Assembly: GCA_963783375.1 (NCBI GenBank)
Contig: CAWANH010000001.1
Coordinates: 1-64,000, forward strand
Reading direction: 5' to 3'
DNA: 64,000 nucleotides
Source of the DNA: Candidatus Eiseniibacteriota bacterium
GTDB taxonomy: Bacteria; Eisenbacteria; RBG-16-71-46; JABDJR01
A program made the translations under genes and the position numbers. Positions 9,182 to 20,675 of this stretch are shown here, in pieces. Under the pieces are notes generated by a model that saw nothing but the letters and a program-made list of their open reading frames with translations, was not told the origin of the DNA and searched no databases. Numbering within the stretch: the first letter of the stretch is position 1; every line of letters starts with the position of its first letter.

Positions 9182-10826
9182 ATGAACACGCGTAACATGC
9201 GTACCGACAGAGTGTTACCCAGATCGCAGTCCGCGACCCGCGCGGTGGGAGCCGAGAGCCTCAATCTGGCCGGCTCCCCTGCACCCGCGCTTCCCGCCGC
9301 CGCCCCCGTCCGCGCCGCCCTCTACGTCCGGGTCAGCACCCAGGCCCAGGCCGAACGGTGGTCCCTCCCCGCTCAGCGCCAGATTCTCCAGAATCTTGCC
9401 GAGACGCCGGGGATGGGACGGCATCCTCTACGACGAGGGTGGGGTGAGCGCAGAGACCATCTCGGCCCGGCCCGTCATGCAGCGGCTCCTCGCCGACGTC
9501 GCCGCCGGCCGGATCGACATGGTCGCCGTCGTGGAGATGGAACGGCTTTGCCGGGCTTCCGATCTCCGCGACTGGGCCACGATCACCACGACGTTCCGGG
9601 AAGCCGGGGCCCTGGTCTCCACCCCCGAGCGCACCTTCAACCTCGAGACCGCCGAGGACGACTTCGAGGCCGACCTCCGGGGCATCCTCTCCAAGCGCGA
9701 GAAACGGAAGCTCCTGGAGCGCACCAAGCGAGGCATCGACCAGGCCAAGGACGCGGGGCGCTACGCCGGGGGCACGCCCCCGACCGGGTACCGCTACGAT
9801 CCGGTCGCCCGGAAGATCGTCGTCGATCCCGAGAAGGCGGAACTCGTCCATAGGGTCTTCAAATCCCGGCTCTCGGCGTGGCAGATGCACCGGGAGCTGG
9901 CCCGGGAAGGCGTGAGTCTCAGCTACGAGACGATCCGGCGCATGCGGGCGAACCCGGCCTACCTGGGACTGCGGGCAAACTGCGAGGGCGAGCTGGTTGA
10001 AGCCGACTGGCCGGCCTTGATCGACGAGGCGCTCTGGGAGGCCCAGGGACGGCGATCGCCGAGGCCATCCCGCCGAAGCCCGGGTCGAAGCGGCCCTGCC
10101 TACCTCCTGACCGGGATGATCCGGTGCAAGAACTGCGGAGGGCCCGTGGTCGGCACCCCGGTCCGTCCGGCCAAGGACGGCACCCGGCTCTACGCCTACA
10201 AGTGCCTCCACCCGAGGAAGTGCCCCGGAAACGGGGGCCAGATGAGCGGCCGCCTCGTGGACCGCATCGTCACCGACGCCCTGGTCGAGTACGTGAAGGA
10301 CCCGGAGGTTCTGAAGGAGCGGTACGCCAAGGCGCTGGCGGCTTCCGCCGACCCCAACCGAGCCGGGCACCGGAAAGGACTCCAGGACCAACTGGCAGAA
10401 CTTGACGCCCGGCAGGGCCGGCTTCTCGAAGCGGTCGAACAAGGGGTGCTACCCGCCAAGGCGGTCCGGACCCGGCAGCGGGAGATCGAGGACACCCGCA
10501 GGGCCACCCTCGCCGACCTGGAAGCCCTCGACGCCGCCACCGTCATCCCGTCGGTGCCGGAGTTGCAGACACTGCTCGACCTGGCCCAGGACCTGGACCC
10601 GGAGGATACGGCCCAGCGGCGGGAGCTGCTTCAGAGGCTTTCCACCGGGGTCCTCTTCGCCCCCCAGGGACGGACGCTGGCGCTGGCGTGGCGGTTCGGG
10701 GGGGAAACCCAGTGCCGGGTGCCAAGGCTCACGGCTGGGCCGGGGGACAAACTTCCGCATACACTGTCCATGCCTTCTACCGCAGATCTATCCTGCCCTG
10801 ATCCTTCCAAGAAGCGATGCCTCTAG
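9182..10826 (+). CDS. Large serine recombinase / integrase (frameshift near 9404)
   Basis: RAALYVRVST (catalytic Ser) in one frame. After one extra base: YDEGGVSA, RPVMQRLL, VEMERLCR, GGTPPTGY, recombinase domain, LLTGMIRCKNCG...YKC Zn ribbon and a coiled coil. Confidence 0.92.
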
Positions 10827-14685: not shown

Positions 14686-14975
14686 TGTAAACGGCGGTCG
14701 GAAAGTGCGGCGGGCGGCAGGGCGGTTGAAACGTGCGGCACCCCTTGCCGGCCCAGGGAAGAGGACCAAACTCCTCGGCATTCACGATGCGTCGGGTGGG
14801 AGCCGTCTTCCCGGGAGGCCGGAAGGCGTACCCAGACACGGAGCAATGGGCTGAGATCCGTCGCCGGGTGCTGCAGGAGGGGGTGAGCAAGCGCCAGATC
14901 CTACCGGAGATCGGGATGCACTTGAGGACGCTGGAGAAGATCCTGAGCCACAGCGCCCCGCTGGGGTACCGGGCG
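14686..14975 (+). mobile_element. IS21-family left-end remnant with IstA N-terminal fragment
   Basis: TGTAAACGGCGGTCGGAAAGTGCGGC...GGCGGTTGAAACGTGCGGCAC (terminal TG plus tandem internal repeats), then YPDTEQWAEIRRRVLQEGVSKRQILPEIGMHLRTLEKILSHSAPLGYR (IstA-type HTH). Confidence 0.8.
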
Positions 14976-15018
14976 CCGGGGCGGGGGGCGCCGTCGGGAG
15001 TGCTGAGGTCAGGAGCGG

Positions 15019-15435
15019 CCATTTCACCTTCGGGAGCCCCTCGCGGTACCACTCCTTGATCCCGTGCCCGGAGTTGACGAAGCGGTCGAACCCGGCATCG
15101 ACGAGCAGCTTGCCGGCGACGGTGCTGCGATTGCCGCTGGCGCAATAGACGAACACGGGGTCCTGCTTGTGGGCAGCCAGCTCGTCGAGGCGCCGCTGCA
15201 TCTGCTGCACCGGGATCGGGACCGCGCCCTCGATATGCCCGGAGGCGTACTCCGGAGGGGTGCGCACGTCCAGGATGAACGAGTGGACGTTGGCGATCAT
15301 CTCCGCCGCCTCGCAGGCTCCGATCTCGCGGTACTGGGCCGCGGTGTAGTTGATTGCGTCGATGGTGCCGCTAGCCGGACCGATCCGGAACGCGAACGAT
15401 CCGGTGTCCGGAACCTTGAAGTGCGCCCGGGCCAC
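15019..15435 (-). pseudogene. Rhodanese-domain gene remnant (5' truncated, stop codon lost)
   Basis: ILDVRTPPEYASGHIEGAVPIP...VFVYCASGNRS...GIKEWYREGLP; no clear RBS; reads on into the IS21 relic. Confidence 0.7.
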
Positions 15436-15660
15436 CGTTCACTCTCCGCACAATTATGCGGGAGATGGGGACGACGTGCTCTCCCAGGCGGGCGATGATC
15501 GCACGGGGGGATGTAACGCCGTGCCGTCAGGGATGAGGTTGTCCGACGGACTCGGGGGTCCGGCTTCCGGCCTCTGTCCAAAGAAGCGGTGGGGGGAATG
15601 CTCCCCCCACCGCGCGTATCGATCTCGGGACCGTTGTCCCGACGGTCTGGCCGGATTCCC

Positions 15661-16683
15661 CTACGGAGTCGAGCCGCTGGTCGTCGGGAAGTCGTGGGAA
15701 TCAGTCGCGTCGTTGAACGCGGCTGCCACGCGGACCGTGGCGTCCCGCGTCCAGGACATGATCCCGAACTTCATGTTCACGGCTTGGTAGCCCATCATGC
15801 GCAGGGCCGTGGTCGCGACCGCACCGGTGTGGCCCGTGTAGCAGTAGACGACGATCGTCTTGTCCGTGGGCAGCTTCTCCAGGTTGTCGATCTTGGCGAT
15901 CTCCTTCCAGGGGATGTTGTAGGCCCCGGGGACATGTCCCAGATCGTAGTGGGCAGCCGAGCGCACACTGAGAACGAAGTAGTCGTTGGCATCGTTGCCG
16001 TCGTTGAGGTTGTCGAAGACGGCCTGAGCGGTGATGGTGGCCCCGACGCTCGTATCCGAGACGTACGCATCAGCCGCAGCCCGCAGGATCTCTTCCGCGT
16101 CCCTGGACGTGGTCACGTTGAGGTCCGACAGATCGTAGGTGGTGGTCAGAGCGTTGACCGTGGTCTCCGTGGGGAAGTCGTGGGCGTCGGTAGCGTCGTC
16201 GAAGGCGGCCGCCACGCGGACCGTCGCGTCCCGAGTCCAGGCCCCGATCCCGAACTTCAGGTTGACCGCATCGTAGCCCATCGCGTTGAGACACGTGGTG
16301 GCCACGCCACCGGTGTGACCCGTGTAGCAGTAGACCACGATCTGCCGGTCGGTCGGCAACGAGCTCAACAGGGTCGCATCAGCGACCGAGCGCCAGGGGA
16401 TGTCGTGCGCACCGGGAATGTGCCCGATCGCGTAGTGTTCAGCGGAGCGAACGCTCAACACATACGGGTCGTTGGCGGTGTTTCCGTCGTTGAGGTTGTC
16501 GAACAGCGCTTGGGCGGTCGTCGTCGGGGCCATGGTGGCATCGGACAAGTACGTATCGAGCGCGGTACGCACGATATTGAACTGGTCCACGGGCGTCGGC
16601 TTGGTCGAGTCGTCGCCACCACAGGCCGACAGCATGCCGGCGAGCACCAGGCCCATCAGGACCCAGAAAGCAAGCTTCTTCAT
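15661..16683 (-). CDS. Tandem-rhodanese (sulfurtransferase) lipoprotein
   Basis: Lipobox MLSAC; two near-duplicate rhodanese domains, each with LSVRS..HY..GH.PGA and active-site loop VVYCYTGHTG; AAGGAG RBS. Confidence 0.9.
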   Translation of the reverse strand: MKKLAFWVLMGLVLAGMLSACGGDDSTKPTPVDQFNIVRTALDTYLSDATMAPTTTAQALFDNLNDGNTANDPYVLSVRSAEHYAIGHIPGAHDIPWRSVADATLLSSLPTDRQIVVYCYTGHTGGVATTCLNAMGYDAVNLKFGIGAWTRDATVRVAAAFDDATDAHDFPTETTVNALTTTYDLSDLNVTTSRDAEEILRAAADAYVSDTSVGATITAQAVFDNLNDGNDANDYFVLSVRSAAHYDLGHVPGAYNIPWKEIAKIDNLEKLPTDKTIVVYCYTGHTGAVATTALRMMGYQAVNMKFGIMSWTRDATVRVAAAFNDATDSHDFPTTSGSTP

Positions 16684-16687
16684 CACC

Positions 16688-18073
16688 CTAGTCTCCTTCC
16701 CGGCGGCCCGTGAATAGGCCCGCGTTCTCGGGTAACTGGCGGACAAAAACGCCGTCGTTCGCCTGGATCTCCTCTTCGAACATCAGCCCTTCCTGAATGA
16801 GCGAATCAGCGTATTCCGGAGTCAGGAACAACTCGCGGTGGCCGTGACACGCGTCGCAGGAAGCGTTTTGGGGCGTGTGCTTTTGTATGTTGTGCGGCGT
16901 GGCGTACTGCCAGGTGGGGGACGCCGCATACTGGGGCAAGCTGATTCCCCAGTCGGCAAACGTGTTGGGAGCGACGGGGACGTGCCGCACGACCACATAG
17001 CTCCACGGCCGGTCCGCATTCGGTTCCGGATTGAGTCCGATCCGGAAATCCATCCGCGACGGGAACTGGATGCCCTGCGAATCCAGACCTACATGACAGC
17101 TATAGCAGGTCTTGTACTTCACCGAGTGACAGACCTGGCAGGCCACCGTCGACGCGTGCAGCTCGTGCTGGGTGTTGGCCATGTCGGTCATGACGCCCGG
17201 ATGGCAATCCGTGCACTGCGGAGCCCCCGGCGCGTCGTACCGCGTCGCGGGAGTGGTGCCGTCACCGTGCAACTCGTTGCCGGAGTGGCAGGCTAAGCAT
17301 GTCTTGCCCTTGAGATAGTGAGCGTCCGGAGGAATCCCCGCGTTGTGCCCGCGGTATTCGTCGCCCACCCGGCTCCCATGACATGCCGTGCAATTGTCGA
17401 CCATCGAAGGCGCACGCAGGATGGCGTGGTTGTTGACGAGCCCTCCCTCCACGGCGACGGGCCGGCTGATGTGGCACTGGCCGCAGGAGGTGTGGCAGCT
17501 CGCACAACGGCTGTCGAACATCGCCTGCAGCTGGGCCGAAGGCTGGGCCATTCCCGTTCGCGCCGCGAAATCGGTGAAGTACCCGTTCTGCGTACCGTGG
17601 AGACTGGCCGCATGGTTGGTGACGATGCCCTGGTGACAGGTGCGACACGCAGGAGAGTCTCCTGCCGAGGGGTCAACGATCATCCCGGTGTGAGCTTCTT
17701 CCTTGGTGTGCTCTCCGCTCTGGCCTTCGTGGCAGCTCGTGCAGGAGAAGGCGCCGTGCGTGCTGGCGAGGAATACGCTCGAGACCTGGTACTTTTGCCA
17801 TACCTCCAACTGAGGTACTTCCCCGCCTCACCCCTCTCCCGAACTCTCGGGGACCGTAGCCGTGTCTGGCTCGGCGGTGGCGATGAGCATATCCTTGTCG
17901 CTGTGGCACCCTTCACAGTTGGCCACCAGCCCGTCGCCGTGCGGACGCAGACCACCGTCGTTGTCCTTCGCGCACCCGGCGAAGAGGGCAAGGACCGCGA
18001 CCAGGACCACCAGCAAAGGGAAAATCACCCCCACCGTGCGCCGGCGTTTATCACTGCTCGGTTGCAGCCGCAT
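16688..18073 (-). CDS. 11-heme c-type cytochrome lipoprotein, probable selenoprotein (UGA = Sec at codon 82)
   Basis: AAAGGAGG RBS, ATG 18073, lipobox LFAGC, one CxxCH, then PESSGEG-TGA(17830-17828)-GGEVPQLEVWQKY, in frame with ORF 16688..17809 carrying 10 more CxxCH. SECIS-like hairpin directly 3' of the UGA. Joined product 461 aa. Confidence 0.85.
17800..17818 (-). promoter_or_regulatory. Putative bacterial SECIS element
   Basis: GUACCUC-AGUUG-GAGGUAU, a 7-bp stem starting 9 nt after the UGA; the apical loop is 16 nt from the UGA with G as its second base, as in the bacterial SECIS consensus. Confidence 0.75.
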
Positions 18074-18234
18074 GGCTCCCCTCCTTTGAAGGAGTAGACC
18101 CCGCCATGGATGGAGGCGGACAATCCGGCGGCTCCACCCGACCGGGAGCCGTACCTTCCACGCCTCCCGGTGCGGGAACGGAAATCGAAAGAGACCGTTC
18201 CGTTCATCGAACCGGTCGATCTCCACCTTTCGCT

Positions 18235-18316: not shown

Positions 18317-19348
18317 CTAGTCCCGGGAACCATGGCAGTACTGACAGAATCGATCGGGTGCCTCCTGCCTCGTGTGGCAGTCGAAGCAGTAGTACCCGTC
18401 ATCGTCGTGCCACGGGCCATGGACGTCGTAGTTATCGAACCCGTTGGGGTGGATGCTCCGGTCGTTGCCCCGACCCGGGTTGGAATCGCGGTGACAGCCG
18501 ATGCACACCGGCTCGTCCTGCGAGTGGCAACTCGCGCAATATGCAATGTCCCGTCGCGCCTCCACGGAATGGCGATTGAGCCCGGTAATCCAGTCATCCG
18601 CGTGATTCTCGGGAGCGATCCCCTCCCTCGCGTGGCAGTCATTGCAGAAGGACTCAACTTCGTGACATGAAGTGCAGTCGTTCTCGTGCTTGCGCGCGTC
18701 CAGCGGATGAGTGAAGACATAGTTCCGGTCGTGGGTCATGAAGAGAACGTTCTCCCCTTCGTGACACTGGCTGCACAGATCACTCTCCCGGTGGCACGAC
18801 TCGCAATCCTCGGCCGCTCCGCGGGCGGAGAACTGGTGGGTATGCCGGTAGTCCGGCCCGTGGTCCAGCGGAAGGAGGGTGGAGGCGTCGGCGTGGCAAC
18901 TCTCGCATTCGTTGTCCGCCTTTTCGCCGTCGTGACAGGTGAAACATACCGGGTGGCCGGGTGCTCCCTCATCAGTGGCGGCGAGTTCGGAATCAGTAAG
19001 GGCCCCGTGGCAGAGGGCACATTCGCCCTCGGTCAGGACGAGATGTCCCTCGTGCGAGAACTCCGGGAAACCCTGGAGCGCGGACGAGGCGGTCGGAACG
19101 CCCCCCCAAGCGGTCAACTCCTCCTGCGAGTGACACGCAAGGCAGGTCTCGGCGGTGGGAAGCAGGGCGTCCTCTCCGGACCGGCTGCCGGCTGCGTCGG
19201 GATGGCAGGTGGCGCACTCGACGCCCGCCTCCTTGTGCGTGACGTGTGAGAACGGAACGTCTGCGGCGCCGACGGCGAAGTAGACTGCAGTCAGGGCGAG
19301 GACACCGAGGGTGATCCGGCCCATCCGGCGGGAGTTGCTGCTGGTCAT
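18317..19348 (-). CDS. Periplasmic multiheme cytochrome c (13 CxxCH; cytochrome c3/c7-like N-terminal part)
   Basis: Signal peptide, FSHxxH motifs, 13 CxxCH counted, repeated H...W/Y...H spacers. Confidence 0.92.
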   Translation of the reverse strand: MTSSNSRRMGRITLGVLALTAVYFAVGAADVPFSHVTHKEAGVECATCHPDAAGSRSGEDALLPTAETCLACHSQEELTAWGGVPTASSALQGFPEFSHEGHLVLTEGECALCHGALTDSELAATDEGAPGHPVCFTCHDGEKADNECESCHADASTLLPLDHGPDYRHTHQFSARGAAEDCESCHRESDLCSQCHEGENVLFMTHDRNYVFTHPLDARKHENDCTSCHEVESFCNDCHAREGIAPENHADDWITGLNRHSVEARRDIAYCASCHSQDEPVCIGCHRDSNPGRGNDRSIHPNGFDNYDVHGPWHDDDGYYCFDCHTRQEAPDRFCQYCHGSRD

Positions 19349-19361
19349 GGTCGATCCCCCC

Positions 19362-20675
19362 TCAAGACTGTCCCAGGCGGAAACGTCGGTCGATCCGGAG
19401 CAGGAAACGCGTGTCGCTCTTCAAGTCCCAGTTGTTCATCATTTCCAGCTGCCCCGAGATCCGGGTCAGAGCGTTCGCCTTGTAGGTGGCGGAAAAGATC
19501 CCCGACGCGACGTGGTTGTCGGTGAGATCGGTGTTGCCCCAGTCGTAGGTCTGCCATCCGAGGTCGACCAGGAAATCCCAGCGTTTTCCCACGCTCCGGG
19601 TGGCGGAGGCCACGAGACCCACGCGATCACCGGCAAAGCCGGATTCGAACCGGGCGCCGAGCTGGATCGCGTTGCGCTGGAGGACGATCCGATAGGTGTC
19701 GGCGTGTTCGTTCGAGCTCTCCCCGGTGTCCGTCTCGCTGTCGAGGGCGGTGTGCTCGAACTCCAAGTTCGCGCGGTACGGCCCCGTGATCCCGAACCCG
19801 GCCCCTCCCCGGACCTGGGTGTACGGCTCCACGTCCCAGAAGGCGAAGAACGAGGTGGCGGGCAGGGCGACCTCCCGCCGGTTGTACTCGCCCCAGACGC
19901 GGAGATAGCGAGCCCGGCGGAGATACTCGAACCCGGCCGCGGTACCGTAGGTTCGATCGAGTACGAAGTCGTGCCTGATTTCCGTCCACGCCCGCAGCTG
20001 GCGACGGTAACGGAGAGTGCCGCGAAGACCGAGGCGTTGGGATTCCGCCATGCCGTCGCGCCGGGTGTCGGCGATGCTCGCCGCGATCTCCGGGACGATC
20101 GTCTCGCCGACCCGGGGACGGATGCGGAGTTCCGCTCCCAAGCGCCGCGAGTCATCCGGGGAGTCGATCCGCAGTTGCTCTCGGGCATCGATGCCGAGCG
20201 TTCCCCCGAAGACGGTCACTCCCCCCCAACCCGGGCGGTCCAGCCGCACAATGATGCCGTCCATGGTACCCGTGCCGACACCGGCGGTGACCCACTGGCG
20301 TCCCAGGCGCGACTGGAGTGTCAGACGCTGGCTGCCGAACGGGCGGGGGCGGTACTCCAGGTACCCGTCGTAGAGGCGCGTTCGGGTGTCGCCGATGCTT
20401 TGGTTCGAGAGATCGTTGCGCGCGGTCAGCGACGCGTGGAAGGAGAGGTTCGAGATCCCGAAGTCGAACACCCCGAACCGAAGCCTCTCGAAGGCCCGGG
20501 TCCGATTCTCGAAGTTGTCGCCAACTCCGCCTTTGGCGACCGCCTGCGAGTAGAAGGCGGTGCTACTCGAGCCCCTGAGGCTTGTCGCCTCCACCGGAAG
20601 CGGCGTGCTCAATGCAAGGCCGAGACCCAGGATCACGAGCACGGTCAGCGCTTGCCCAGGAATCCGTCTTCCCAT
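19362..20675 (-). CDS. Outer-membrane beta-barrel (putative cytochrome-associated porin)
   Basis: Signal peptide, many amphipathic beta-strands (RLYDGYLEY, SRLGRQWV, MDGIIVRL), C-terminal RFLLRIDRRF; directly upstream of the multiheme cytochrome. Confidence 0.8.
   Translation of the reverse strand: MGRRIPGQALTVLVILGLGLALSTPLPVEATSLRGSSSTAFYSQAVAKGGVGDNFENRTRAFERLRFGVFDFGISNLSFHASLTARNDLSNQSIGDTRTRLYDGYLEYRPRPFGSQRLTLQSRLGRQWVTAGVGTGTMDGIIVRLDRPGWGGVTVFGGTLGIDAREQLRIDSPDDSRRLGAELRIRPRVGETIVPEIAASIADTRRDGMAESQRLGLRGTLRYRRQLRAWTEIRHDFVLDRTYGTAAGFEYLRRARYLRVWGEYNRREVALPATSFFAFWDVEPYTQVRGGAGFGITGPYRANLEFEHTALDSETDTGESSNEHADTYRIVLQRNAIQLGARFESGFAGDRVGLVASATRSVGKRWDFLVDLGWQTYDWGNTDLTDNHVASGIFSATYKANALTRISGQLEMMNNWDLKSDTRFLLRIDRRFRLGQS

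Follow-up and report, generated by a model that had tools for sequence, protein, structure and literature searches.

The TGA codon at bp 17830–17828 (minus strand) of the window, the whole 64,000 bp stretch of DNA analyzed here from a Candidatus Eiseniibacteriota bacterium (JABDJR01), is almost certainly translated as selenocysteine (Sec), which makes the two reading frames that it separates one gene for a membrane-anchored, exported 11-heme protein. As judged from its open frame and its homologs, this gene (bp 16688–18073, minus strand) encodes a 461-amino acid c-type cytochrome lipoprotein with Sec at residue 82. It represents a real, mis-annotated selenoprotein family that is analogous to the MccSep cytochrome of Geobacter sulfurreducens and is not a member of that group.

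Gene structure and the TGA codon

The gene, like all features of this locus described below unless otherwise stated, lies on the minus strand. Its ATG (bp 18073) is preceded by the ribosome-binding site AAAGGAGG (bp 18080–18087) and opens 81 codons that end at the TGA, beyond which the frame remains open to a TAG at bp 16690–16688. The 5′ part encodes a lipoprotein signal peptide (bp 17972–18073) with the lipobox LFAG-C34, recognized in the sequence and in homologous loci, and the heme 1 motif CEGCH (residues 53–57; bp 17903–17917), which corresponds to an in-frame CxxCH in the homologous loci. The Sec codon is placed by the homolog column and the structural model in an acidic, Gly-rich loop (S-G-E-G-U-G-G-E-V-P), and the core that follows (bp 16844–17743) carries hemes 2–11, so that 10 of the 11 CxxCH motifs of the read-through product lie 3′ of the TGA. 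Taken by itself the downstream ORF has a TTG start (bp 17809), which falls inside the loop of the hairpin discussed below, and no signal peptide; attachment of c-type hemes occurs after export.

The preliminary description of this DNA had proposed a lipoprotein ORF (81 codons, ribosome-binding site, lipobox, one CxxCH) ending in TGA and running on in the same frame into a 10-CxxCH ORF, and this layout is borne out by the sequence. Its further proposal, a single 11-heme selenoprotein with Sec82, is supported by the Sec machinery, the TGA/Cys column, the covarying hairpin and the unsplit homologs described below, and its expectation that standard gene callers split the gene agrees with the database, where 115 of the 120 best listed protein matches span at most 81% of the query. 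A miscall of the TGA was looked for and a sequencing error is rejected: a second contig from another public run, possibly of the same study as the source, spans the codon (bp 17671–17919) with identical letters. Recoding to Trp (code 4 or 25) is likewise rejected, as selD and tRNA-Sec are present and ordinary genes here terminate with TGA.

Selenocysteine insertion

A check of the genome for selA, selB, selC and selD found SelA (551 bits), SelB, SelD and a tRNA-Sec with anticodon TCA, and selD itself has an in-frame TGA. Among the 21 other carrier genomes, SelA was detected in 20 (the exception is 75% complete), and it is likewise present in all four noncarrier genomes examined.

A bacterial SECIS hairpin with a 7 bp stem and a 5 nt loop (bp 17800–17818; GUACCUC-AGUUG-GAGGUAU) begins 9 nt past the UGA, with its loop 16 nt from the UGA and G at loop position 2. 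The preliminary description had given this geometry and its fit to the SECIS consensus, and the RNA does fold as described, with an energy of −10.5 kcal/mol and a z score of −2.75 over 37 nt; over 60 nt z is −1.6, so the single-sequence fold alone is modest. The rules for such elements in a recent survey (PMC13188914) are a loop of 3–9 nt, a stem of 4–16 bp, G in the first two loop positions, a spacing of 16–37 nt and a minimum free energy of at most −7.5, and the hairpin lies within every one of them (5 nt, 7 bp, G2, 16 nt and −10.5). The 7 bp plus G geometry occurs at 37 of the 96,464 TGA triplets in the genome, just two of which have at least 100 open codons on both sides, a count that is not a blind test since the pattern was derived from this hairpin itself. 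The same geometry is present at a TGA elsewhere in the genome (G000:C28, bp 1627264–1627266, plus strand; context FLTPES*QGPGE), between open frames of 317 and 330 codons, which is possibly another selenoprotein or two adjacent genes.

Comparison among homologs gives the hairpin more weight. Its stem pairs are intact in 71 to 95 of 99 distinct TGA windows, and for pair 16-28, C-G occurs in 55 of them and G-C in 37, a swap that accompanies an amino acid change (Pro/Val to Ala/Pro) and may reflect one or a few events. In 20 loci of the class, 84% of cells pair, versus 31–60% in slid controls. Synonymous codons in the hairpin region are fixed (CCG for 87 of 87 Pro, TTG for 80 of 88 Leu at position +7 and CCT for 51 of 55 Pro), whereas in the rest of the same genes these codons make up 42, 14 and 14%, respectively. 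The one locus with a Cys codon (TGT) has different codons over this region and a different fold, and the hairpin is lost. It is thus very probable that SelB reads this hairpin and inserts Sec82.

Homologs and the selenocysteine column

The gene is present in 22 of 206 genomes of the phylum and in 22 of 201 genomes of the class; of the 23 loci in the class, 22 have TGA and one has TGT at the Sec column. At least 557 relatives occur among the 600 metagenome pattern matches listed, and among the best 80 of these relatives 77 have TGA, two stop short of the column and one (L057) lacks 3 nt. (A single-protein query of the genome collection gave three weak, unrelated loci and was discarded.) With L008–L010 (unrelated), L051 and L072 (ending before the column) and P0164 (misaligned) left out and L057 counted apart, the column reads TGA in 99 of 101 informative loci, Cys in one and a 3 nt loss in one; none of the 101 shows TAA, TAG or a shifted frame. 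In L057 (protein P0117) the loss deletes the TGA, giving GEG-W-GSV, and a SECIS-like stem stays; either Sec was recently lost here or the assembly is at fault. Conservation continues on both sides of the codon in the form G-x-G before and GG after, with Gly at −3, −1 and +2 in 97, 98 and 100 of 100 loci, respectively. An in-frame CxxCH lies 5′ of the column in all 100, preceded by a hydrophobic stretch in 95 and by a strict lipobox pattern in 68.

Among the top database matches 49 proteins have heme 1 on the same chain as the core, and these natural unsplit proteins show that the heme 1 part and the 10-heme core are one protein. Their residue at the Sec column is Cys in 17, Trp in 6, Tyr in 4 and Ala in 4, with 4 gaps and 14 others; the non-Cys residues are chiefly W, Y, A, P, S, R and L, and His occurs in just 2 and Met in 1 of the 49. 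The 32 with neither Cys nor Sec are mostly more distant relatives and retain the hemes, so the residue is dispensable for the superfamily as a whole; Sec or Cys is typical of close relatives and not of every distant one. At E ≤1e-30 the relatives form 212 clusters at 50% identity, and named database matches come from Ca. Eisenbacteria, Chloroflexota, Phycisphaerae and Gemmatimonadetes. Variants include 13-heme forms with TKDDG-[TGA]-GG (L032 and L033), a genome (G079) with one 11-heme-type and one 13-heme copy, and two proteins lacking the Sec loop, of which P0125 repeats the second half of the core three times and P0271 is joined to cell-wall-binding domains.

These comparisons make it very improbable that translation really ends at the TGA or that the codon is an error, with two genes or a pseudogene in place of one gene. 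An in-frame GTG or TTG does lie within 14 codons downstream in nearly all loci, and gene callers begin there, but the absence of TAA and TAG, the conservation of the frame, of G-x-G-[TGA]-GG and of the hairpin, the lack of a signal peptide on the core and the existence of unsplit proteins all argue against it.

Neighboring genes

Along the minus strand lie, in order, a probable β-barrel gene, a 13-heme cytochrome gene, the Sec gene, a tandem-rhodanese lipoprotein gene and a terminator. The first (bp 19362–20675) encodes a 437-amino acid exported protein whose sequence pattern makes an outer-membrane β-barrel likely; it has no Pfam or NCBIfam match, and none of its 32 relatives bears a functional name. 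The cytochrome (bp 18317–19348), identified by its 13 CxxCH motifs and neighbor clustering, lies alongside in just 5 of 100 loci, many of which have short flanks, and so appears to be accessory. Downstream, the rhodanese gene (bp 15661–16683; two PF00581 domains, two CYTGH loops) starts at an ATG 4 nt past the cytochrome stop and has its own ribosome-binding site, and the unit ends in a terminator-like hairpin (bp 15586–15613) that was found by consensus scan only. Beyond it lies a further single-rhodanese ORF (bp 14782–15435) with an odd start and a fragment-like appearance. On the plus strand, a large ORF (bp 9396–10826) resembles serine recombinases by eye and overlaps another frame at its start, which hints that an integrated element occupies the region from roughly 7.9 to 14.4 kb.

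The cytochrome has a rhodanese gene or in-frame rhodanese domain beside it in 62 of 65 well-flanked loci (80 of 100 overall), on its upstream side at some loci and on its downstream side at others; the Cys locus is among the three well-flanked loci without one. The two are in frame in L085, L106 and L107 and fused in P0175, P0186 and P0124, and fusions are known in both orders, although the P0124 junction may be an artefact. A 4Fe-4S gene is next in 18 of 100 loci and a cytochrome b561 gene in 10 of 100, and there are fusions to the electron modules cytochrome b561 (P0123) and NapC (P0193). Judged by eye, ccm-like cytochrome c maturation genes and LysR, CsoR-like or sigma-54 regulators recur alongside among the loci L040, L043, L046, L054, L073, L087, L108 and L111. 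Above cut-off, SoxB is found in none of the 22 carrier genomes and DsrA in one. A complex prediction for the rhodanese with core residues 83–449, and hence without heme 1 and Sec, scored 0.01 against a mark of 0.32 and counts neither way.

Heme ligands and predicted structure

The 11 heme motifs are invariant, and ten other histidines are conserved in the alignment, with H364 varying in distant relatives, so one or two hemes probably have no distal His. The only conserved Cys or Sec residues outside the heme motifs are the lipobox Cys and U82; with nine or ten distal His available to 11 hemes, there would be space for Sec to ligate iron. All 99 Sec rows have both R235 and R363. R235 is kept in 13 of 16 Cys versus 11 of 25 non-Cys rows and R363 in 15 of 15 versus 20 of 27. 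These correlations are nominal, with uncorrected p values of 0.025 and 0.038, and one search pattern included R235.

An AlphaFold model built from 150 rows, with Cys for Sec and no hemes, has a pLDDT of 92.3 and a pTM of 0.89, with residues 69–88 as coil at pLDDT 75–76; an earlier one built from 24 rows was of low quality (pLDDT 58) and was left out of the fold search. In a Foldseek search with the 150-row model nothing passed E 0.001; the top match, a weak one (E 0.15, TM 0.32), was to the octaheme tetrathionate reductase OTR of Shewanella (PDB 1SP3). Each heme corresponds to 4.2 kDa of protein.

Comparison with known multiheme proteins

OTR (TIGR04315) is the nearest solved relative by sequence (E 7e-6) as well as by fold. 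Hemes 3–9 and several distal His are in register with OTR hemes I–VII (P 98.1, 171 columns), although a single-sequence query gives a second register and an unrelated 13-heme control protein reaches P 96.0 over 44 columns, so kinship is likely and not proven. Membership is rejected at 15.2 bits against a cut-off of 375. Compared with OTR the protein has three more hemes and a Sec beyond the aligned region, and it lacks the GKKN and NNFC motifs; we take the GKKN Lys and the NNFC motif at heme II of OTR to be ligand and active site. The genome has a separate true OTR (L152; G000:C28:499914-501158) that scores over the cut-off and has no internal stop, and OTR-family octaheme genes occur in 16 of the 206 phylum genomes.

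MccSep/ExtKL (GSU2937-2936; NF040886; PDB 9WT8 and 9WT9) is likewise an exported multiheme c-type cytochrome with one Sec, an in-frame UGA and a SECIS, annotated as two genes. It is described as a proven Sec-dependent polysulfide reductase that also reduces selenite, with polysulfide preferred about sevenfold (PMC13510729), encoded in a cluster with a rhodanese, a porin, further cytochromes and a cytochrome b (PMC5877670). It has 5 hemes rather than 11, and its Sec325, which is not the heme ligand, is supplied by a C-terminal Ig-like domain and acts together with the heme ligand Cys239 (PMC13510729), whereas Sec82 is N-terminal and no partner Cys is conserved. Membership is rejected here too: NF040886 gives no match at E 0.01, a profile comparison with MccSep gives E 0.063, and MccSep is absent from the listed fold matches. 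A scan of the 206 phylum genomes with NF040886 gave no match, but no control scored either, so this says nothing on absence.

Likeness to other chalcogen chemistry is local. The TsdA and SoxA His-Cys cytochromes may share a chalcogen-ligated heme, with no sequence match found; TsdA reacts via the Cys ligand of its active heme (PMC4423706). The carrier arm of SoxY has the motif GGCGG (PMC6067878), which resembles the Gly-flanked loop here and the GGGCGG of relatives P0130 and P0200. The SoxY arm is C-terminal and the present loop is internal, and Sox membership is rejected on this ground and on the absence of SoxB over cut-off from the 22 hosts. The GSU2204-family CXXCH (seleno)protein (NF041027), described in PMC13188914 as a β-barrel-type protein, shares the selenoprotein listing and CXXCH motifs, and membership is rejected (no match at E 0.01). 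The 2026 table of 119 families (PMC13188914) lists three CxxCH families, ExtKL, GSU2204 and a GenBank-annotated Sec form of OTR, from each of which the protein is set apart by HMM score; the table has no recognizable row for the 11-heme family. NCBIfam 20.0 and Pfam give generic heme-motif matches only, with no NCBIfam selenoprotein model that fits, and no description of the family was found in the open-access literature. The BSepDB family list may bear on novelty.

Possible function

On balance we lean toward an exported sulfane-sulfur reductase in which the G-U-GG loop takes sulfur from the rhodanese; the likely substrate (polysulfide- or thiosulfate-derived sulfane sulfur) and the direction of the reaction are taken from the gene neighbors only. 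After SelB has inserted Sec82 at the hairpin, as is very probable, the chain would be exported, lipidated at C34 and loaded with 11 hemes, as follows from established cytochrome c maturation. The CYTGH cysteine of the rhodanese, judging by its family, would load sulfur as a persulfide, which the selenolate on the SoxY-like, internal G-U-GG loop would accept as Se-S, and this bond would be reduced at a heme without distal His with release of sulfide. Electrons may come from the quinone pool via a 4Fe-4S protein and a cytochrome b or NapC-like module in some loci, given the Fe-S and cytochrome b neighbors and the b561 and NapC fusions, and at the JABDJR01 locus perhaps via the upstream 13-heme cytochrome. 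The sulfur role is proposed because the rhodanese adjoins nearly all well-flanked loci and occurs fused; the reductase reading draws further on the MccSep analogy, on tetrathionate reductase as nearest solved relative and on the absence of SoxB from the carriers. Counting against it are the Cys- and Sec-less relatives, the lack of a conserved partner such as MccSep C239, the missing GKKN and NNFC motifs, the weak OTR fold match, the three well-flanked loci without rhodanese, and the mass of 4.2 kDa per heme, which lies in a range that, according to PMC7096707, holds only electron-transfer proteins.

That last figure, together with the relatives that have neither Cys nor Sec and the occurrence of cell-wall-anchored and repeat forms (P0271 and P0125), would fit a plain electron-transfer cytochrome in which Sec tunes the potential, protects against oxidation or ties synthesis to selenium; we consider this unlikely, because 99 of 101 close loci retain TGA although a single step would be enough to escape it, and because the rhodanese link recurs both by position and by fusion. 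A somewhat better, though still rather doubtful, case can be made for Sec82 as a lasting axial ligand of a His/Sec heme, with TsdA- or SoxA-like chemistry on it that possibly oxidizes sulfide or thiosulfate. The hemes without a conserved distal His, U82 as the only other conserved S or Se residue, the precedent of TsdA (PMC4423706) and the closer tracking of R235 and R363 with Cys are consistent with it, but the model has its lowest confidence in the Sec loop, natural substitutions are seldom His or Met, the Arg correlation is nominal, uncorrected and affected by the search pattern, and the hosts have no Sox system. Very unlikely is a role on selenite, tellurite or another oxyanion, with the rhodanese handling selenium or detoxification products: MccSep does reduce selenite (PMC13510729) and cells without the ExtI porin are impaired in reducing selenite and tellurite (PMC5877670), but the former enzyme's preference for polysulfide speaks against it.

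A more far-reaching and tentative reading, to which we would give modest credence at best, is that this is a second, independent multiheme selenoenzyme family, spread over several phyla and concealed by gene calling, whose Sec binds heme iron and swings off as an internal, SoxY-like arm to the rhodanese sulfur. We know of no described natural His/Sec heme c. What Sec does at a heme could be tested directly on the natural variants with and without Cys.

The gene adds a widespread selenoprotein family that was not found in the catalogs examined (NCBIfam, Pfam and the 119-family table). Current annotation yields an 81-amino acid stub and a signal-less "hypothetical protein," so sulfur respiration may be overlooked in uncultured sediment bacteria that mostly lack Dsr and Sox.
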